Positions 2,537 through 35,108 of a DNA stretch of 35,398 bases are shown here, one piece after another. Positions within the stretch are counted from its first letter, which is position 1. Each line of letters begins with the position of its first letter. The stretch covers positions 19,344 to 54,741 of the forward strand of contig PXUB01000039.1 of the NCBI GenBank assembly GCA_003009755.1, written 5' to 3'. Origin of the DNA: Thermoplasmatales archaeon SW_10_69_26. Its GTDB lineage: Archaea > Thermoplasmatota > SW-10-69-26. Position numbers and translations under genes: made by a program. The notes under the pieces were generated by a model that saw only the letters and a program-made list of their open reading frames with translations, was not told the origin of the DNA and did no database searches.

Positions 2537-3511
2537 ATGGTGCTCCCCTCGTTGCCCGAGCCCCTGCTGCTGGCGGGAGCCTTCGTAGGCATGGGCTTGC
2601 TCGGGTTCGGGGCCGTGTGGACGGACCGTCGCCACCACTGGCCTCGCATCGCTGGCTGGATGCTGTTCGGCCTCTACTGGCCGTTCAAAGCCCAGCACTA
2701 CTTCGCCATCGACGATCCGTTCAACGCCGTGCTGGCGCTGGCTGCCCCGCTGTTGACCGGCTACATCGCCTACCACGAGTACCTGTCGTGGAAGTGGGGC
2801 GAGCGCCCGGTCGCGCTGACCTGGCTGGCCGGCGCCACCTTCGTCGCCGCGTCGACCTACTTCCTCCTGTTCGAGATCACCGCCATCCAGGAGGAGATCA
2901 TCTACTGGACCGGCAAGGAGACCGCGTGGCTGACCGATACCGTGTTCGGCACGAACTCGATGGCCTACCAGTCCCCGACCGTGGACCCCCAGGACGGCTA
3001 CCGACCCACGCACATCTGCCTGGCCGAGGGCTACCAAAGCTCGGTCACGAGCCAGTTCTGCGGCGCGGAAGGGGCCGCCAGCTCCTGGTCGGGTGCCGCC
3101 TCGCAAGGTTTCCCCTACTACGCCGTGACGATCGTGTTCGCCTGCACCGCCTTGCAGTCGATCATGATCTTCGTCGGCGCGATCGCCTTCACCAAGGCCG
3201 ACACGGTGCGGAAGCTGAAGGCCTACGCCCTCACGGTCCCCACCATCTACGCGCTGAACCTCTTCCGCAACGCCGGCATCATCTACGGGTACCGCGTGAA
3301 GCAGTGGTCGATGTTCGGCATCGACTCCTTCACGTTCATGCACAGCTACGTGGCCAAGCTCGGCGCCATCCTCGCGCTCGTCGGCATCGCCTTGGCCGTG
3401 TTCCGTCTGCTGCCGGAGCTGCACGAGAACATCCTCGACGTCCTGTCCTTGCACGAACGCGAGCAGGCCAAGCCACCGTCCCCGCGCTCCGGCACCCCCA
3501 CCGAGACGTGA
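2537..3511 (+). CDS. artA: Archaeosortase A (PGF-CTERM-processing)
   Basis: Multi-pass membrane protein with exosortase/archaeosortase motifs IVFACTALQS (catalytic Cys), NLFRN (Arg) and MHSYVAK. The C-terminal LLPELHE..D is also ArtA-like. Confidence 0.85.
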   Translation: MVLPSLPEPLLLAGAFVGMGLLGFGAVWTDRRHHWPRIAGWMLFGLYWPFKAQHYFAIDDPFNAVLALAAPLLTGYIAYHEYLSWKWGERPVALTWLAGATFVAASTYFLLFEITAIQEEIIYWTGKETAWLTDTVFGTNSMAYQSPTVDPQDGYRPTHICLAEGYQSSVTSQFCGAEGAASSWSGAASQGFPYYAVTIVFACTALQSIMIFVGAIAFTKADTVRKLKAYALTVPTIYALNLFRNAGIIYGYRVKQWSMFGIDSFTFMHSYVAKLGAILALVGIALAVFRLLPELHENILDVLSLHEREQAKPPSPRSGTPTET

Positions 3512-4112: not shown

Positions 4113-4822
4113 GCCTGCCCGACCCTCGCCGCTGGGTCGCCGACGCGATGACGCTGGCCAACGGCATCTTCGGGTTCCTCTCCGTTCTCACGTGGGCGGT
4201 GGAGCTGGGCCCACTGTCGAGCCTGCCCGACCCGGCCGTCGCCGCCGCCTACATCGGTCTCGGCGTCGTCGCCGACGGCCTCGACGGCGTCGTCGCCCGC
4301 GCCTGGGGCTCCACCGGGGTCGGGGACGCCCTGGACTCGATCTGCGACGCCTTGACGTTCAGCGTGGCGCCCGCCGTGTTCCTCGTCAACGTGAACGAGA
4401 TGGTCGACGGCCTCGTGTTCCGCTCGGCTCTCTCCCTGGCCGCCGTGGCGCTCGTGCTCGCCGGCATGCTGCGCCTGGCCCGCCACCGCACCGGCGGCTC
4501 GACGGCCGTCTTCCACGGCCTGCCGACCCCCTGGAGCGCCGCCGCCTTGATCACCGTGCTGCTGCTCGGGATGCCCGGCTGGATCAGCGTCGGCCTGGCG
4601 TTCCTGCTCGCCGGCCTCAACCTCAGCCCGGTGCCCTACCCCAAGACCCGCGGCGCGGTGTTCACGCGCGCCGCGCTGGGCCTGGCGGTGGCCAGCCTCC
4701 TCGTGATCGGCGGCCTGCTCGTCTTCCAGCAGACGCCCGACTCCCTGCTGTGGCTGGCAGCGATCGTCGCGATCGGCCTCGTCCTGTTGGCCCCGATCGC
4801 TGCACCGACCGGGGAGACCTAA
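4109..4822 (+). CDS. pssA: CDP-alcohol phosphatidyltransferase (archaetidylserine synthase)
   Basis: Signature DGLDGVVAR...GDALDSICD, plus RLAR and FHGLPTP. GTG 4109 overlaps the pssD stop (GTGA). Confidence 0.88.
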   Translation: MSLPDPRRWVADAMTLANGIFGFLSVLTWAVELGPLSSLPDPAVAAAYIGLGVVADGLDGVVARAWGSTGVGDALDSICDALTFSVAPAVFLVNVNEMVDGLVFRSALSLAAVALVLAGMLRLARHRTGGSTAVFHGLPTPWSAAALITVLLLGMPGWISVGLAFLLAGLNLSPVPYPKTRGAVFTRAALGLAVASLLVIGGLLVFQQTPDSLLWLAAIVAIGLVLLAPIAAPTGET

Positions 4823-28025: not shown

Positions 28026-29825
28026 ATGGCCGAGGGCTCGCGGGCCGGGACCAAGGATCGCTACGTCGCCGTCGTCGACCAGGACAAGGTCACCGACGAG
28101 GTCCGCGACATCGCGCTCAAGTACGACCCGTTGAACCAGACGCCCGGCGAGCAGGGGTTCCACGTCACCGAGGACGGCCAGCTGCACATCGAGGACCACA
28201 AGGTCATCGAGGAGCACCGGATCGTCCAGAACAAGATCCCCAACGACGCGATCGAGATCCTCCGCCTGCCCGCCGAACGCGGCGAGCTCGTGCACCAGTA
28301 CGGCCCCAACGGGTTCCGCCTGTACGAGCTGGCGGCCCCGGTGGAGGACCGCGTCGTCGGCTTGCTGGGCCCCAACGGGGTCGGCAAGTCCTCGGCCCTG
28401 CGCATCCTCGACGGCTCCCTGCAGCCCAACCTCGGCCGGATCGAGGACCCCCCGGCGTGGGCCGAGATCGTGCAGCGGTTCCGTGGCACCGCCGCCCAGC
28501 GCTACTTGGAGAAGCTCGAAGCCGGCGAGGTGTCCACCGCCTACAAGCCCCAGCGCGTGGATCGCATCCCCGAGCACCACGGGGGCACGCCCGAGCAACT
28601 GCTCGCCCGCCGGGACGAGCGCGGCCGCCGAGAGCAAGCCCTCGAGGCGCTGGAGCTCGAGCACGTCGCCGACCGCCGGGTCGACGAGCTGTCCGGCGGC
28701 GAGCTGCAGCGGTTGGCGATCGCGGCCACGCTCGTGGCCGACGTCGACACCTACCTCGTCGACGAGCCCAGCTCCTACCTCGACGTCGGGCAGCGGTTGA
28801 CGATGGCCCGCGGCCTGGCCGAGCTGGCCGCCGACCGCGAGGTCATCGTCGTCGACCACGACCTCGTCACCCTCGACGTGCTCGCCGACCAGCTGCACGT
28901 GGTCTACGGCCAGCCCGGCGGGTTCGGCGTCGTCTCCCGGCCCCTGTCGGCTCGGCGAGGCATCAACCAGTTCCTGTCGGGTCGGCTCGAGGACGAGGAG
29001 ATCCGCATCCGGGAACAGGCGATCACGTTCCGCGAGGACCCAGCCCGCCGGGCCCGCGAGGGCGACCCGGTTGTGAGGGTCCCCTCGCTGACCAAGCGCT
29101 TCGACGGGTTCGAGCTCACCGTCGACCCGGGCACGATCCACGCCGGCGAGGTCGTCGCCGTGCTCGGCCGCAACGGGCTCGGCAAGACCACCTTCGCCCG
29201 CCTGCTGGCGGGGGCCTTGTCCCCGGACGAGGGCACCATCGAGGAGGAGGTCGCGATCGCCTACAAGCCCCAGTACCTCGACCCCGGCTTCGAGGGCACC
29301 GTCGGCACGTTGCTGGCCAGCCAGGTGGACGTCGAGGCCGCCGGCTTCCAGGCCGACATCCGCGGCCCCTTCGACCTCGATCCGCTCTGGGACGAACCCG
29401 TGCCCTCCCTCTCCGGCGGCGAACGCCAGCGCGTCGCCGTCGCGCTCGCGCTCGCCCGCGAAGCAGACGCCTACCTGCTGGACGAGCCCTCGGCCTACCT
29501 CGACGTCGAACGCCGCATGGCGCTGGCCGGCCGCCTGCGGCGCTTCGCCAGCCAACGCTCGACGCCCTGCCTGGTGATCGACCACGATCTGTCGCTGCTC
29601 GACGCCGTGGCCGACCGCGTCATGGTGTTCGAGGGCGATCCCGGTCGCCGCGGGCACGGGCGTTCACCCGAGCCCGTCCGGGAGGGCCTCGATCGGTTCC
29701 TGGCCTCGGTGGACGTGACCGTCCGCAAGGACGCCCGCACCGGTCGGCCCCGGGCCAACGATCCCGGCTCGCGCAAGGACCGCCAGCAGCGCGAGGCTGG
29801 GGAGTACTTCGCCAGCGAGGCCTAG
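28026..29825 (+). CDS. rli: ABCE1/Rli ribosome-recycling ATPase paralogue lacking Fe-S cysteines
   Basis: HQYGPNGFRLY; NBD1 motifs GPNGVGKS, LSGGELQR, DEPSSYLD and DHD; NBD2 motifs GRNGLGKT, LSGGERQR, DEPSAYLD and DHD; hinge TGRPRAN; C-terminal DRQQREAGEYF. Confidence 0.9.
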   Translation: MAEGSRAGTKDRYVAVVDQDKVTDEVRDIALKYDPLNQTPGEQGFHVTEDGQLHIEDHKVIEEHRIVQNKIPNDAIEILRLPAERGELVHQYGPNGFRLYELAAPVEDRVVGLLGPNGVGKSSALRILDGSLQPNLGRIEDPPAWAEIVQRFRGTAAQRYLEKLEAGEVSTAYKPQRVDRIPEHHGGTPEQLLARRDERGRREQALEALELEHVADRRVDELSGGELQRLAIAATLVADVDTYLVDEPSSYLDVGQRLTMARGLAELAADREVIVVDHDLVTLDVLADQLHVVYGQPGGFGVVSRPLSARRGINQFLSGRLEDEEIRIREQAITFREDPARRAREGDPVVRVPSLTKRFDGFELTVDPGTIHAGEVVAVLGRNGLGKTTFARLLAGALSPDEGTIEEEVAIAYKPQYLDPGFEGTVGTLLASQVDVEAAGFQADIRGPFDLDPLWDEPVPSLSGGERQRVAVALALAREADAYLLDEPSAYLDVERRMALAGRLRRFASQRSTPCLVIDHDLSLLDAVADRVMVFEGDPGRRGHGRSPEPVREGLDRFLASVDVTVRKDARTGRPRANDPGSRKDRQQREAGEYFASEA

Positions 29826-30499
29826 ACGGCGTCCTCGATCAGCTCGGCCAGGTGCTCGGCCTCGTCCTCGCGGCCCGGGTCGAAGCTCGTGAGCCGGAAG
29901 TTGCGTTCGGGATCCATCTCCGTCCGATGAGCGCCGGGGTTGACGTGCGTGGACCCGTCGGGCAACCGGATCGCGGGGCTGTGCGTGAAGCCCTCCTCGT
30001 ACCAGCCCTCCTCGGTCTCGGCGACGACCTGGGCCCGATGCCCGTCGTCGTAGACCTCGAGGAACCGCTCGCGGGCGAGCCCGACGTCCTCGGCCAGGTC
30101 GGCCAGCACGTGGCGCAGCGTGAGGCAGGCGTGCTCGGCGAAGAAGGCCTGCCGGATCCGCCAGTCCAGCTCCCACGCCATCTCGGGGTCGATCGACTCG
30201 GCGGCTTTGACGGCCTCGAAGGCGGGGAAGAACGTGGAGGGCCACTCGGCGATCTCGGCGTCGGGCCAGGGCTCGTAGGGGATCTGTTCCTCCAGGAGGA
30301 CGAGGCTGTGGGTCTCGACGTCCAGGATCCGCTTGGGCGTGGGAGCCTGCTTGTCGTACTCGATCGAAAGGCACCGCGAGCGGAAGCTGACGTCGTCGGG
30401 GACCTCGTCGTTGATCTGCCGCAACCGGTACCGCGTGAGGTAGGCGTGCGGGCAGTGCAGGTCCGAGAAGAACTCGACATCGGGCATCACGAGACCCAT
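29822..30499 (-). CDS. DsbA/FrnE-like thioredoxin-fold protein (CPHA monothiol site)
   Basis: VEFFSDLHCPHAY, AVKAAE, RIRQAFF and GFTHSPAI (cis-Pro position). The start may be 30499 or 30487. Confidence 0.75.
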   Translation of the reverse strand: MGLVMPDVEFFSDLHCPHAYLTRYRLRQINDEVPDDVSFRSRCLSIEYDKQAPTPKRILDVETHSLVLLEEQIPYEPWPDAEIAEWPSTFFPAFEAVKAAESIDPEMAWELDWRIRQAFFAEHACLTLRHVLADLAEDVGLARERFLEVYDDGHRAQVVAETEEGWYEEGFTHSPAIRLPDGSTHVNPGAHRTEMDPERNFRLTSFDPGREDEAEHLAELIEDAV

Positions 30500-30822: not shown

Positions 30823-31038
30823 TCACACGATGCGCTCGTCGCCGCGGTGCAACAGGTAGGCGCCGAACGCGATCGAGGACGCTCCCAGCCCGGTCAACAA
30901 CCAGCCGAGGTTGCGCGCCGTCGATGCTTGCGAGCCCAGCGCGTCGGCCACGGGTGGGGCCAGGGCCCACAGGAGGCCGAAGGCGGTGAACGGCAAGGCC
31001 AGGAAGATGAGCCGCCGCCCGGCCGTGGTTCCGCGCAT
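30823..31038 (-). CDS. Small two-TM membrane protein
   Basis: Two hydrophobic stretches; ATG 24 nt after the upstream gene's stop. Confidence 0.55.
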   Translation of the reverse strand: MRGTTAGRRLIFLALPFTAFGLLWALAPPVADALGSQASTARNLGWLLTGLGASSIAFGAYLLHRGDERIV

Positions 31039-31062: not shown

Positions 31063-33081
31063 TTAAGGCTTGCGGGCTCGCACCACCCACGCGGCCCCGA
31101 ACAGGAGGCAGAGGAGGGCGAGCGCGCTCGGGCCGGGGGTTTCGGCCGCCTGGTCCCCCGTGGCCGCTCCGTCGGTGGGCCGGATCGGTTCCAGCTTCGA
31201 GGGCTCGGCGTCGGGCGCGTCCTCGGTGTCGAGCTGGTCCTCGGTGGGCAGATCCACCGTGGCGGTCGACCCGGGGGTGGCCTCGGTTTCCGTGGCGCCC
31301 TCGTCCGTCGTCTCGGCCTCGTCCTCGCCGGCCTCGTCCTGGGTCGTCTCGTTGGTGTAGGTGAACTGGCCCAGGTTCAGGGCGTCGACCTGCACGGAGA
31401 GCGGTTGCCGACCCGCGTCGACGGGCACGGTCAGGTTGCTCGTGGCCGTACCTGCGGCCGGCACCTCGAGGCCGCGGGCGGCGCCGGGTTCACCGTCCAC
31501 CAGACCCAGCAGGGTCGCCGGTCGGGGGATCGGGCTCGGGTTGGTGACGTCGACCGTGATCCGTGCCTGTTCGCCGGTGGATGCCACGTCGACGGGGTCG
31601 ACGGTGAGGGGGTCGGTGCCCTCCTCGATCGTCCAACCGTCGACGGTGATCGCGCGCGTCACGACGTGGCCGTCGGCGCGATGGATCGACAGCGGGTGGG
31701 TGCCCTCGTCCGGCAGATCGGTGACCAGCGTCCCGTTGGCGTCGGTGAACCCCTGCGAGCGGTCGTCGAGGTAGACGGCCGCGTCGGACAGCGGGCGATC
31801 GCGGCCGTCGGTGAGGGTCCAGTGGACCTCGGGACCATCGTGCACGGCGGCGTGGACGCCGGCGGTCGCATGGATCGCGACCGGCTGGTCCGTGCGGGCC
31901 AGCGAGACCCGGGCCTCGCCAGGGTCCTCGTCGGCGAGGTCGATCGTCCAGCCGGTCTCGTGGCCTCGGACGTCGGCCGTGGCGCCGGTCACGGTCGGCG
32001 AGAGGGCGCGCAGACGGTCGGGGCCGGTCAGGTCGACGCGGAGGGAGGCCGAGCCTTCGGCCACGTGCAGCGGGTGGATGGCCAACGTGGGATCACCGAC
32101 GGTGATCTGGGCGGGCAGATCGATCCAGCGGTCGCCCCCGGCCGGCTGCACGCTGATCCGGTGGGTGCCCAGCGGGAGGTCGTCGAGCGTGTCGGCGGGC
32201 ACGCGGGCCCGGCCCTCGCGGACCGGGACCGAGGGGCTGGCGGCCCCGTCGGCGCCCCTCAGACGCAGGGTGCCCTGTGCGGGCGCCCCATCGCGCGTGA
32301 CGTTGACCTCGAGCGGGCCCTGGTCCAGACCTCGGAACCAGGTCGACCGGTCCATGGAGGCCTCGAGCCCGATCAACCGGACGCTGGGCATGGTGCCGGC
32401 GTTGTCGGTGGTTCCCTCGCGCACGTACAGGTAGTAGGTGCCGGGCTCGAGCGAGGCGTCCGAGCGCAGCAGGGTCGTGTTGTCGCGGGCCTGGACCTCG
32501 CCGGCGGTATCCGAGGGCGGCGTGTAGGCACGCATCGGTAACCCTCGGACGTCGAGGTAGCCTTGGCGGATCTGGGAGGCGGCGTCCTCGTCGACGAGAT
32601 AGGCTTGGACATCATCGTCGCCCTCGATCTGGGCGGAGACCTCGATCTCGTCGCCGGCGTACACCTCGTCGTCGGCGACGGCGACGGCCATCTGGCCGCC
32701 GGCCGCCTTGTCGGTATCGCCAACCCCGCCGACACCGCCCGTCATCATGAACCCGTACACGGCCAGGCCTGCGACCAGGGCGGCCACGAGCGCGCTCGCC
32801 AAGGCCAGGTAGAACCGGGTCCGCTGGGGGTTGAGCAAGCGCTTGCCGCGACCGGTGAGGTGGTAGTAGACCCACAACCGGTCGTCCTCCTGGCGTTCGA
32901 CCAGGCCGACCTCGGTCAGCTTGTCCAGGTGCTCGTGCACGGTCGCCTTGCCCAGATCGAGCTCCCGCGAGAGCTCGGTCACCGTCATGCGCTGGTCCTG
33001 GAGCAGGGAGAGGATGTCCCTGCGGGTGTCGGCGGCCAGCACCTTGATCAGATCCGGTTCGAGCGGGAGCTCCTCGGGCAT
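31063..33081 (-). CDS. ArsR-type winged-HTH protein with a TM helix, large extracellular beta-rich region and PGF-CTERM-like sorting tail (672 aa)
   Basis: HTH: IKVLAADTRRDILSLL...TVTELSRELDLGKATVHEHLDKLTEVGLV...WVYYHLTGRG. TM: FYLALASALVAALVAGLAVYGF. Several N-x-T sequons, an acidic T/E linker, and tail ETPGPSALALLCLLFGAAWVVRARKP. Confidence 0.85.
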   Translation of the reverse strand: MPEELPLEPDLIKVLAADTRRDILSLLQDQRMTVTELSRELDLGKATVHEHLDKLTEVGLVERQEDDRLWVYYHLTGRGKRLLNPQRTRFYLALASALVAALVAGLAVYGFMMTGGVGGVGDTDKAAGGQMAVAVADDEVYAGDEIEVSAQIEGDDDVQAYLVDEDAASQIRQGYLDVRGLPMRAYTPPSDTAGEVQARDNTTLLRSDASLEPGTYYLYVREGTTDNAGTMPSVRLIGLEASMDRSTWFRGLDQGPLEVNVTRDGAPAQGTLRLRGADGAASPSVPVREGRARVPADTLDDLPLGTHRISVQPAGGDRWIDLPAQITVGDPTLAIHPLHVAEGSASLRVDLTGPDRLRALSPTVTGATADVRGHETGWTIDLADEDPGEARVSLARTDQPVAIHATAGVHAAVHDGPEVHWTLTDGRDRPLSDAAVYLDDRSQGFTDANGTLVTDLPDEGTHPLSIHRADGHVVTRAITVDGWTIEEGTDPLTVDPVDVASTGEQARITVDVTNPSPIPRPATLLGLVDGEPGAARGLEVPAAGTATSNLTVPVDAGRQPLSVQVDALNLGQFTYTNETTQDEAGEDEAETTDEGATETEATPGSTATVDLPTEDQLDTEDAPDAEPSKLEPIRPTDGAATGDQAAETPGPSALALLCLLFGAAWVVRARKP

Positions 33082-33143
33082 CCGTGCACCTATCCGACGG
33101 TGTCCATACCTACCGGCCCGTCCTACAAATACGTCTGGGGGGT

Positions 33144-33161
33144 GTTCGGTGGGCACCGAAC
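33144..33161. promoter_or_regulatory. Candidate operator: perfect 8-2-8 palindrome in the divergent intergenic region
   Basis: GTTCGGTG-GG-CACCGAAC, 12 nt downstream of the AT-rich TACAAATA box (33124-33131). Confidence 0.5.
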
Positions 33162-33173
33162 GCCGGAGCCCAC

Positions 33174-35108
33174 CTGCCGCGGGCGGCCGGTGGTTCCCGA
33201 GGTTGGGCATCGATCGCGATCGTCGTGGCCTTGCTGGCCGGCGGCCCGGCAGGATCGGCCTTGGCCGACCACGTCGACCACGAGCGCGAAGACGAATGGC
33301 ACATCACGCACACCGTGAACGCCACCGTCGTCGACAACTACGCGACCGTACGTGTCGGCGTGGAGATCGTGAACGAAGGCCCCGATCCCGAGTTCCCGTT
33401 CCGGGTCGACCTACCCGAGGACGCCTACGTGACCGGGCTCACGGTGACACGTGACGGGAAGACCTACGAGGCCGACATCCAGGCCGCCGAGGAGGCTCGC
33501 GAACGGTACGAGCAGGCTCGCGAGGAGCATCGGTCGGCGGGCCTGGTCGAGGAGGCCGACGAGGGCGTGTATGCGTACAACATCAACGTGGAAGGCACTG
33601 AGACGGTGCAAGCGACGCTGACCTACGAGCGCTACGTGACCGCCGACGGCGGGGTCTACGAGCTCGGCCTGAGAGCACCGGCCACGCAACGCGGGATCGA
33701 CGAGGGCGCCACGATCGAAGCCCACGTCCAGCACCGGGCGGGGCTGGAGACCTTGCAGGCCGCCCCCGAGGCCGAGATCACCCGCTCGGGTGACTCAGGG
33801 CACGTCGTCCGCCACGTCGACCCTCGCGGCCAAGACGAAGCCAGCGACCTCCGCGTCCGGTACGAGCTGGCCCAGACGCCGCCTGGGGGCGCGATCGAGG
33901 CCGCCGTCGAGGATGGGACCGGGTACTTCGCGCACCGGTTCCGAGCCTCCGAGACGATGGACCGCGTCCCGGTGGACGTCGCCCTCGTGCTCGACACCAG
34001 CGGCTCGATGACGGGGGACAAGATCGCCCAGCTCGAGCAGGCCACGCGTCGCCTCGTCGACGACCTGGAACCCCGCGACCGGCTGGCGTTGACCTTCTTC
34101 GCCGACGACACCGATCGGCCCTGGGAGGGGTTCGCGTCCGTCGATGCGAACACGACCGACCGTGCCTTCGACGCCCTCGAGCGGATGCGCGCCACCGGGT
34201 CCACGAACATCGAGCAGGCGATCGCTGACGGCTTCGCGCCCCTCGGCGATCTCGAGACCTCCGTCGAACGCTTGCCCGTCGTCGTGTTCCTCACCGACGG
34301 CCGCCCGACGACGGGGGTCACCGGCGAACACCAGCTGCGCACCGCGGCCCTCGAGGCCAACGACGCCGGCGCCCACGTCTTCTCCCTGGCGTTCGGTGCC
34401 GACGCCGACTGGGGTCTCGTGCACGGGCTCGCCCAGGACGGCGAGGGCCTGGCCCGCCACGTCCAGGGCAGCGATCACGCGGAGGTCGAGCTCGGCTCGT
34501 TCCTGACCGCGCTCACCACGCCCGTCCTCACCGACGTCCAGCTCGACCACACCCACGCCGAGGAGACCTGGCGCGTGGGCGCCCCGGTCCTGTTCGCCGG
34601 TGGCGAGCTGTTGTACGTCGGCACCTTCGACCCCAACCGGACCACGCTCGAGGCGCAGGTGACGGCCCGCGATGACCAGGGCCGGCGCTCGTGGAACGTC
34701 TCCGAGGCCGTCGAGGAGACCAACGCCAGCTACCTGCCGGATCTGGTCGCCTACCAGCGCATCCAGGCGCTCGAGGCCCAGATCCAAGCCGAGGGCGGCA
34801 ACGCGACGCTGGAGGAGCGAGCGCTCGAGCTCGCGCTCGAACACGGGTTCGTGACCGACCAAACGAGCCTCGTCGTCGACCTGCCCGCCTCGTCCAACGA
34901 GGAACCCGAGCCACAGACGCCCGACCACGAGCCCACGGACGCAGCCGATGCGACACGAGGGGCCCAGCCCGCGGATCGATCAGCCACGGATGGAGCCGAC
35001 GAGCCCACCGAGGCCGATGAACAGCCCGCCCAAACCCCCGGTGTCGGTGCAGCCCTCGCGGTGGCCCTGCTCGCCATCGGAGCCGCGGTCGCGCGATCGC
35101 GGCCGTGA
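33174..35108 (+). CDS. Secreted VIT + vWA domain surface protein with a PGF-CTERM-like tail
   Basis: Signal peptide ending SALA; VIT motifs (LPEDAYVTGL, EEARERYEQA, SAGLVE); vWA MIDAS LDTSGSM, GSTNI, FLTDG; ITIH-like LALEHGFVTDQTSLVV; tail QTPGVGAALAVALLAIGAAVARSRP. The start is uncertain (CTG 33174 preferred). Confidence 0.85.
   Translation: MPRAAGGSRGWASIAIVVALLAGGPAGSALADHVDHEREDEWHITHTVNATVVDNYATVRVGVEIVNEGPDPEFPFRVDLPEDAYVTGLTVTRDGKTYEADIQAAEEARERYEQAREEHRSAGLVEEADEGVYAYNINVEGTETVQATLTYERYVTADGGVYELGLRAPATQRGIDEGATIEAHVQHRAGLETLQAAPEAEITRSGDSGHVVRHVDPRGQDEASDLRVRYELAQTPPGGAIEAAVEDGTGYFAHRFRASETMDRVPVDVALVLDTSGSMTGDKIAQLEQATRRLVDDLEPRDRLALTFFADDTDRPWEGFASVDANTTDRAFDALERMRATGSTNIEQAIADGFAPLGDLETSVERLPVVVFLTDGRPTTGVTGEHQLRTAALEANDAGAHVFSLAFGADADWGLVHGLAQDGEGLARHVQGSDHAEVELGSFLTALTTPVLTDVQLDHTHAEETWRVGAPVLFAGGELLYVGTFDPNRTTLEAQVTARDDQGRRSWNVSEAVEETNASYLPDLVAYQRIQALEAQIQAEGGNATLEERALELALEHGFVTDQTSLVVDLPASSNEEPEPQTPDHEPTDAADATRGAQPADRSATDGADEPTEADEQPAQTPGVGAALAVALLAIGAAVARSRP

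Follow-up and report, generated by a model that had tools for sequence, protein, structure and literature searches.

A predicted transmembrane regulator with a sorting-type tail and a conserved promoter palindrome in uncultured Thermoplasmatota

Can a protein that binds DNA in the cytoplasm also end in an archaeosortase-type sorting signal? The question is raised by a gene of Thermoplasmatales archaeon SW_10_69_26 (assembly GCA_003009755.1), the product of which we refer to as the regulator. The gene lies on a stretch of 35,398 nucleotides (nt) of contig PXUB01000039.1 (positions 19,344 to 54,741), hereafter the window; coordinates are positions within the window unless stated, and G000 denotes the genome from which it comes. 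We suggest that the regulator belongs to the transmembrane transcription regulators (TTRs) and controls an envelope regulon while held in the membrane, and that its far end is probably processed by archaeosortase A (ArtA). Taken as a whole, and judged from sequence, we hold this account to be moderately likely. Membrane-bound regulators are almost unstudied in archaeal gene control, and archaeosortase substrates have so far been treated purely as secreted cargo. The conserved family described here, from hosts that are uncultured Thermoplasmatota, joins a DNA-binding domain, a surface rod of immunoglobulin (Ig)-like domains and a sorting-type tail, and has a predicted operator and a limited set of target genes to go with them; it is hence a concrete, testable case for the coupling of archaeal cell-surface state to transcription.

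The regulator gene (31063..33081, - strand; 672 codons plus stop) was delimited by an open reading frame (ORF) call and by the alignment of its relatives. The ORF limits fall exactly at these positions, the product has 672 amino acids (aa), and its start, MPEELPLEPD, is common to the aligned relatives. A longer ORF from an ATG at 33210 is possible and is disfavoured, as the relatives begin at MPEELPLEPD. A first-pass annotation of the window had read an intact N-terminal ArsR-like winged helix-turn-helix (HTH) in the product, and this reading stands: residues 15-63 score over the Pfam cut-offs for both HTH_20 (49.2 bits, cut-off 27) and HTH_5, the ArsR family (48 bits, cut-off 22), with the NCBIfam subfamily HTH_metalloreg slightly under its cut-off (51.5 bits against 55). 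The whole domain spans residues 9-83 (32833..33057, -), as delimited by these Pfam matches, by predicted helices and wing, by invariant alignment columns and by a match to Phr PH1932, the archaeal heat-shock regulator that is its closest solved structure (E 1.7e-10, residues 7-65). Phr of Pyrococcus (PDB 1uly/2cwe for PH1932; 2p4w) belongs to the ArsR family, forms dimers and recognises a palindromic site; it differs in being soluble, with a C-terminal coiled-coil dimerisation domain and neither TM (transmembrane) segment nor ectodomain. Within the recognition helix, KATVHEHLxKL, residues K45, A46, T47, H49, E50 and H51 are invariant among the relatives. A metal-sensing alpha5 site is unlikely, because the soluble part of the domain stops at the wing and the first TM helix follows directly.

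Two hydrophobic segments were found by a hydropathy script, at residues 90-108 and 649-667. The first belongs to TM1, a predicted signal-anchor at residues 85-113 (32743..32829, -; hydropathy, AlphaFold2 and alignment), which is preceded by the basic stretch GKRLLNPQRTRFY marking the cytoplasmic side. An AlphaFold2 model built on a 19-row alignment (mean predicted local distance difference test score, pLDDT, 80.6; predicted template-modelling score, pTM, 0.62) places the winged HTH at 9-83, a long helix at 85-113, about five beta-sandwich domains at 133-577, disorder at 578-650 and a final helix at 652-669. The ectodomain, residues 130-577 (31351..32694, -), was delimited from this model, from Foldseek and from its sequons, all five of which (NTT201, NVT260, NGT449, NLT549 and NET577, of the N-x-S/T type) lie inside it; its blocks are mostly modelled at pLDDT 85-97. 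Foldseek matched the whole model to alpha-2-macroglobulin, to the macroglobulin (MG) arrays of C3/C5 and to the Haloferax volcanii S-layer protein 7ptp_A, with good E-values and template-modelling scores of 0.10-0.18. The modelled fold type is clearly an array of about five MG/Ig-like domains, with no specific relative singled out. Searched alone against Pfam and NCBIfam, the ectodomain gave only a sub-threshold CarboxypepD_reg match (16.9 bits, cut-off 32.3), and its top score against the ESM Atlas, 0.77, lies under a level often reached by shuffled proteins and provides no lead.

Beyond the rod lies an acidic, Thr-rich linker, predicted to be disordered (residues 578-645; 31147..31350, -; alignment, AlphaFold2 and composition); the 71 residues from 578 to 648 hold 23 D+E versus 2 K+R. 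Two short motifs are kept family-wide despite the poor conservation of the linker: T-x-T-V-D/E-L-P at residues ~601-609 (~31255-31281, -) and L-E-P-I/V at residues ~626-632 (~31186-31206, -). AlphaFold2 places a short strand at 604-609, and the motifs could be a candidate docking strand, glycosylation site or protease site. The protein then closes with a tripartite tail (residues 646-672; 31066..31146, -), made of TPGPS, a hydrophobic helix and RARKP and recognised by an own-genome tail profile and an invariant P649. The succession of TM helix, beta-rich sequon-bearing domain, acidic linker and TPGP-hydrophobic-RARKP tail, as reported in the first-pass annotation, is thus borne out by hydropathy, AlphaFold2 and a reading of the sequence. 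A topology with the N-terminus inside, the ectodomain outside and the C-terminus inside is supported by the positive-inside rule, since basic residues precede TM1 (GKRLLNPQRTRFY) and follow the last helix (RARKP), with acidic ones between them. The same charge pattern speaks against the concern that the long domain might be cytoplasmic.

A word-indexed protein search returned 19 relatives at 30-59% identity and 73-100% query cover, from jgi, lgn and ncbi sources, and the alignment comprises the query and 18 of them; P0008, a frameshifted copy of P0007, was omitted. HTH, TM, ectodomain, linker and tail are all kept in 16 of the 18 aligned relatives, the exceptions being P0018, which is partial, and P0019, which has a different end. 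Because these 18, drawn from independent sources, share the layout, an assembly artefact at the HTH-ectodomain join, the other danger foreseen for the first-pass reading, is excluded. The HTH is by far the best-conserved part of the protein (mean pairwise identity 76%; TM1 has 52%, the tail 39%, the ectodomain 33% and the linker 25%). An exhaustive search of database representatives yielded 1710 proteins at E <= 1e-3 and 54 at E <= 1e-30, and named genome records place the family in uncultured Thermoplasmata/Thermoplasmatota metagenome-assembled genomes (MAGs). Within the class of the window, at least an HTH-TM match occurs in all 21 genomes and a full-length relative in 11, including 6/6 genomes of the window's own taxonomic family. 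A genome scan with the single regulator protein found no relatives; repeated with the alignment as query, it found 10 loci.

Regulation by a membrane-bound protein receives indirect support from a palindrome located at the regulator's own promoter and at those of envelope genes. The putative operator, GTTCGGTGGGCACCGAAC (33144..33161, no strand assigned), is a 6-N6-6 inverted repeat, GTTCGG-N6-CCGAAC, and is the only match to that pattern in the window at up to one mismatch; genome counts and orthologous promoters also speak for it. From its near edge there are 63 nt to the regulator ATG and 13 nt to a TATA-like box read from the sequence, TATTTGTA (33124..33131, -), which itself lies 43-50 nt upstream of that ATG; orthologous loci have TATAAAT, CTTATA or TATAA at that position. 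In all nine orthologue loci that were first lined up, the palindrome is present in exact or near-exact form, and an AT-rich TATA-like element follows it directly. Of 12 genomes compared, 11 have a copy with no more than one arm mismatch in the 300 nt that precede the regulator gene, and in 9 the copy is exact. Within the window's family, the start of the proximal copy falls between -68 and -80 in 5/6 genomes, and in the sixth, G020, this copy is degenerate. A second exact copy, ~83 nt further out and near the divergent gene, is present in 3/6 (G016, G017 and G018); the outer copy has one mismatch in G019, and in G020 the outer position holds the only match. This conserved palindromic operator is newly found here. 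Together with the charge pattern and the conservation of the HTH, its presence at the regulator's own promoter upholds the earlier description of the protein as a membrane-spanning one-component regulator.

Genome-wide counts point to a small set of targets. The own genome (2.8 Mb) has 3 exact palindromes versus 0.2 expected from 20 shuffles, and each of the three has a TATA-like element and a start codon downstream of it. One belongs to the regulator gene. Another precedes the gene for a protein of 572 aa in which CarboxypepD_reg is repeated four times, and the third the gene for a DUF7490 protein, the start of which resembles a lipobox and the promoter of which lies at G000:C32, about 58720-58745; both of these products end in the same kind of tail as the regulator. 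Own-genome N6 copies with one mismatch (17, against 12.55 expected from shuffles) were treated as noise. Five relatives hold 25 exact palindromes versus 2 for a reversed-pattern control. Eight of these 25 are at regulator loci, and 15 of the other 17 stand directly upstream of a gene whose product has a signal-peptide- or lipobox-like start; L042 does not, and L048 is unclear. A heuristic for signal peptides was discarded, having labelled the regulator itself as 'SP-like'. An orthologue of the CarboxypepD_reg target, from another genus, likewise has the palindrome ahead of its gene. In the own genome the promoter of this target (G000:C17:42964-43002) has a doubled operator: 4 nt after an exact N6 copy comes an N5 copy with a single mismatch. 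At the regulator's own promoter the site stands before the TATA box, a position more typically seen with archaeal activators; in this genome it also almost abuts the coding start of the divergent neighbour, a VIT-VWA surface-protein gene, where repression could occur.

The second part of our proposal concerns the tail, which reads ETPGPSALALLCLLFGAAWVVRARKP and has, at the extreme C-terminus, the tripartite order TPGPS / ALALLCLLFGAAWVV / RARKP-end. Sixty-six of the 3406 own-genome ORFs with high G+C content at third codon positions (GC3) end in a hydrophobic stretch plus a basic cluster. An unsupervised profile was built from the 65 other tails with that of the regulator held out (consensus ...EETSSVPGPGLAALLAALAAAAVAARRRRR), and the held-out tail scored 24.1 bits on it (E 4.9e-6), rank 39 of 3406 C-termini, which is mid-class and third among sequences outside the training set. 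In the relatives' alignment P649 is invariant and the T-P of the motif is conserved; the motif takes the forms PGP, PGL, PAP and PVP, and PGF in some representatives. Long forms among the database representatives (>=400 aa, n=90) have a hydrophobic-basic end in 80 cases, a PG/PxP motif before that end in 54 and a score of at least 15 bits in 56, against 26, 1 and 0 for short forms (<300 aa, n=67), a comparison for which taxonomic make-up is a confounder. The best curated-model match of the last 40 aa is PEP_CTERM, at 14.4 bits and under the cut-off of 16; the own genome has a single place over the cut-off of TIGR04126, the PGF_CTERM model, and 10 more under it, its tails as a whole being divergent. 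The first-pass assignment to the PGF-CTERM tripartite type would accordingly be kept for the architecture and the own-genome profile, on both of which it holds, and given up for the curated model and the PGF motif itself. We lean, if only slightly, towards reading the tail as an archaeosortase A signal in a form particular to this lineage ([VT]-P-G/A-x-G).

The presumed processing enzyme is encoded within the window, 28 kb from the regulator: artA (2537..3511, +) matches TIGR04125 at 139.5-141.1 bits (cut-off 75) and is single-copy in the own genome. The next gene after it (4148..4822, +) encodes a pssA-like CDP-alcohol phosphatidyltransferase, as in the artA-pssA synteny described for Methanosarcina (PMC7157517). 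Its best NCBIfam matches, to archaetidylserine synthase models, are all sub-threshold (77.8 bits, cut-off 240, and, for the 'protein sorting system' model among them, 70.9 bits, cut-off 200). A second gene of the exosortase/archaeosortase family lies on another contig (G000:C6:14974-15894, or L049 1475-2395, -), with 53.7-57.2 bits for TIGR04178 and with ArtC as its closest subtype (52.5 bits, under the cut-off of 100). Adjoining it (G000:C6:15926-16969, or L049 2427-3470, -) is a gene for a 347-aa secreted protein with a different tail (TAIPTFP...RRRG), ending ...EATAIPTFPTTATVGFAIVGSVACLALARRRG; at least four further own-genome proteins, at least five in all, have a similar TAIP[FV]F-type tail. 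This enzyme and this tail are probably a separate, undescribed enzyme-signal pair. Because one enzyme may be expected to serve many substrates, and because a protein with a TAIP-type tail adjoins the second enzyme, we infer that the large PGPG tail class goes with ArtA.

The mechanism that we propose is as follows. By sequence, a single signal-anchor helix links the cytoplasmic ArsR/Phr-type winged HTH to an extracellular rod built of about five Ig/macroglobulin-like domains, and the acidic linker and the tripartite tail bring the outer end of this rod back to the membrane. An HTH dimer would bind GTTCGG-N6-CCGAAC, as comparative genomics suggests, and the membrane-held regulator would autoregulate its gene and control the VIT-VWA gene and a few other envelope genes. 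We assign it this role because the repeat occurs at its own promoter, in most relatives a second time beside the divergent VIT-VWA gene, and at few other promoters, nearly all of them before genes for secreted or lipobox-bearing proteins. Through its ectodomain the regulator would respond to some condition of the cell surface. ArtA would remove the last helix and put a lipid anchor in its place, and the mature protein would then be held by TM1 and lipid, with the HTH still anchored by TM1 after processing.

A number of observations weigh against this account. On the regulatory side, G003 has no site and G004 and G009 have one-mismatch sites only. The binding of the HTH to the palindrome is deduced from position alone, and another factor could bind there; the signal peptides and lipoboxes of palindrome-adjacent genes were judged by eye. 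Most predicted targets in the relatives are without the tail, and the predicted regulon is hence better described as 'envelope proteins' than as 'ArtA substrates'. On the side of the tail, the last 40 aa give no match to TIGR04126 at E <= 10 (cut-off 24.5 bits), and the Pro-Gly-Phe signature is absent, the tail reading T-P-G-P-S; a permuted PGF reportedly blocks processing in H. volcanii. ArtA is present in 21/21 genomes of the class, which leaves no variance for co-occurrence with the regulator, and the own genome holds the second archaeosortase-family enzyme beside a protein with another tail. The regulator is without an N-terminal Sec/Tat signal peptide, beginning with an 84-aa cytoplasmic HTH and then an uncleaved-looking anchor helix, and the ArtA substrates of H. 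volcanii named in the available part of PMC7157517 are Sec or Tat substrates. The wider superfamily, finally, has the layout HTH-TM-loop-TM, and the last helix could be an inherited TM2.

This last point is the basis of an alternative in which the regulator works in the same mode and its C-terminal segment is a plain TM2, derived from HTH-TM-loop-TM ancestors in whose loop the ectodomain grew, and never cleaved or lipidated; the likeness to sorting tails would then be a convergence at the helix cap. Two short own-genome paralogues do have the form HTH-TM-short loop-TM-RRR, and the hydropathy script places a second hydrophobic segment near the C-terminus in most of 161 proteins, short forms included; the lack of a TIGR04126 match and of a signal peptide can be read in the same way. 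However, the held-out tail outscores the short paralogue's TM2 on the tail profile (24.1 versus 12.6 bits), and the motif-plus-tail signature is common among long forms (54-56 of 90) and nearly absent from short ones (0-1 of 67), subject to the taxonomic confounder. A conserved T-P with an invariant P649, a long acidic Thr-rich linker ahead of the tail as in the genome's consensus tail, and a protein that terminates directly after the basic cluster all argue in the same direction. We consider a plain TM2 unlikely, if a serious contender. Within our proposal of a processed tail, we can also conceive of the regulator as both ArtA substrate and substrate-mimic sensor of anchoring, the state of its C-terminus, helix or lipid, reporting the capacity of the ArtA/archaetidyl-ethanolamine pathway and feeding it back onto surface-protein genes. 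All three other own-genome genes that adjoin an exact operator (VIT-VWA, CarboxypepD_reg-repeat and DUF7490) carry the same tail, but most targets in the relatives do not, and we regard such a sensor as improbable.

The first-pass annotation had also raised the idea that ArtA processing, lipidation or proteolysis of the outer domain could govern whether the HTH is set free or active, a scheme akin to regulated intramembrane proteolysis. The regulator is predicted to be doubly tethered, and its linker holds the two conserved motifs (TxTVDLP and LEP[IV]), both of which would suit such a scheme; nothing else speaks for it directly. An ArtA cut would fall ~560 residues and the whole ectodomain away from TM1, so that the HTH would keep its anchor; neither a site nor a partner of the site-2-protease type was identified, nothing in the sequence requires release, and TTRs are described as acting from the membrane (PMC10269533). 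We therefore set aside this part of the earlier interpretation as very improbable. Fainter still is the chance that the protein is a structural surface protein, its winged HTH serving as a cytoplasmic anchoring or interaction module and the palindrome belonging to another regulator. The ectodomain does resemble S-layer and macroglobulin-type domain arrays, but a domain kept for anchoring would be at odds with an HTH that is the best-conserved part of the protein and has an invariant recognition helix, and the palindrome tracks the regulator's own promoter in 11/12 genomes, from three families of the class.

Returning to the membrane-acting regulator with a processed tail, its HTH-TM-ectodomain part belongs to a known class. 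TTRs, among them ToxR, TcpP, CadC and the archaeal ArnR, were surveyed by Demey et al. (2023; PMC10269533), who report ~4 TTRs per archaeal genome and two TM regions in 17% of TTRs. The regulator has the predicted DNA-binding domain and the one or more predicted TM regions by which that survey defines a TTR; like TTRs, it adds to these an extracytoplasmic part and presumably stays in the membrane while acting on promoters (PMC10269533). It is distinct from OmpR-type TTRs in its ArsR/Phr-type HTH, and from the surveyed TTRs in its 450-aa array of Ig/MG-like domains and in a second membrane segment that resembles an archaeosortase sorting signal. The words 'sortase' and 'ArsR' are absent from the main text of the survey, the supplementary lists of which may include family members. 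With the PGF-CTERM/ArtA substrates of H. volcanii (the S-layer glycoprotein and others), as far as the available part of PMC7157517 describes them, the regulator shares a tripartite end, a Thr/acidic linker and sequon-bearing Ig-like domains. Unlike them, it has PGP in place of PGF, leaves the curated hidden Markov model unmatched, and begins with an apparently uncleaved signal-anchor and a cytoplasmic DNA-binding domain instead of a Sec/Tat signal peptide. We found no DNA-binding protein with such a tail in the PGF-CTERM/archaeosortase literature, judged mainly on titles, the starts of abstracts and some passages, and the available portions of PMC4158269 hold nothing relevant on winged HTHs or VWA. 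The initial impression that no described system resembles this one is fair for the tail and overstated for the HTH-TM-ectodomain part; what is new is a sorting-type tail on a DNA-binding protein. Should the tail be processed, the substrate range of ArtA would widen to type-II-anchored proteins with cytoplasmic domains.

The likely target beside the regulator is the divergent gene for a surface protein with VIT and VWA domains (33084..35108, +; Pfam 78.8 bits for VIT and 57 bits for VWA), which ends in QTPGVGAALAVALLAIGAAVARSRP. Its tail (QTPGVG...ARSRP) scores 26.6 bits on the own-genome profile, but was part of the training set. Of the 10 genomes that could be assessed, 9 have a divergent VIT-VWA neighbour, the exception being G019; two further contigs end too early for a judgement. 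The protein is reminiscent of the bacterial 'marine proteobacterial sortase target' proteins in combining VIT, VWA and a sorting-type tail, and TIGR03788 is its best NCBIfam match; it differs from them in that this match, at 155 bits, is far under the cut-off of 551.65 and in that its tail is of the archaeal type, not LPXTG-like. The start of the gene is uncertain. The first ATG/GTG/TTG of the frame is a GTG at 33084, 2 nt from the regulator ATG, and with a start there the operator would fall within the coding part of the gene; an N-terminus resembling a signal peptide (…PRAAGGSRGWASIAIVVALLAGGPAGSALA) runs from an in-frame CTG at ~33171, with no canonical start codon just before it. An unusual start codon or an error in the MAG sequence may account for this anomaly. 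The same regulator/VIT-VWA pair as in Thermoplasmatota occurs at locus L007 (JAJPHT010000031.1), in a MAG whose record is titled 'Proteobacteria bacterium'; that bin is probably mislabelled or mixed.

On its other side, the regulator is followed after 24 nt by a gene for a 71-aa protein with two TM segments (30823..31038, -), called as an ORF and conserved as a neighbour. It is found downstream of the regulator in 5/5 assessable genomes of the window's family and was not detected in f5, the other family of the class with enough flanking sequence. The protein has two hydrophobic segments and invariant residues P16, F17, F20, G21, P28 and P29, and matches no Pfam family. A structure-based prediction of its complex with the regulator gave scores of 0.00 and 0.00, which count neither way on binding. 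In the metagenome record P0008, a frameshift fuses the homologue of the 71-aa protein to the regulator frame. Two genes downstream of the regulator lies a gene for a DsbA-like thioredoxin-fold protein (29822-30499, -; Pfam DSBA, 39.5 bits), and a DsbA-like gene is also found downstream in the relative L004 (61% identity).

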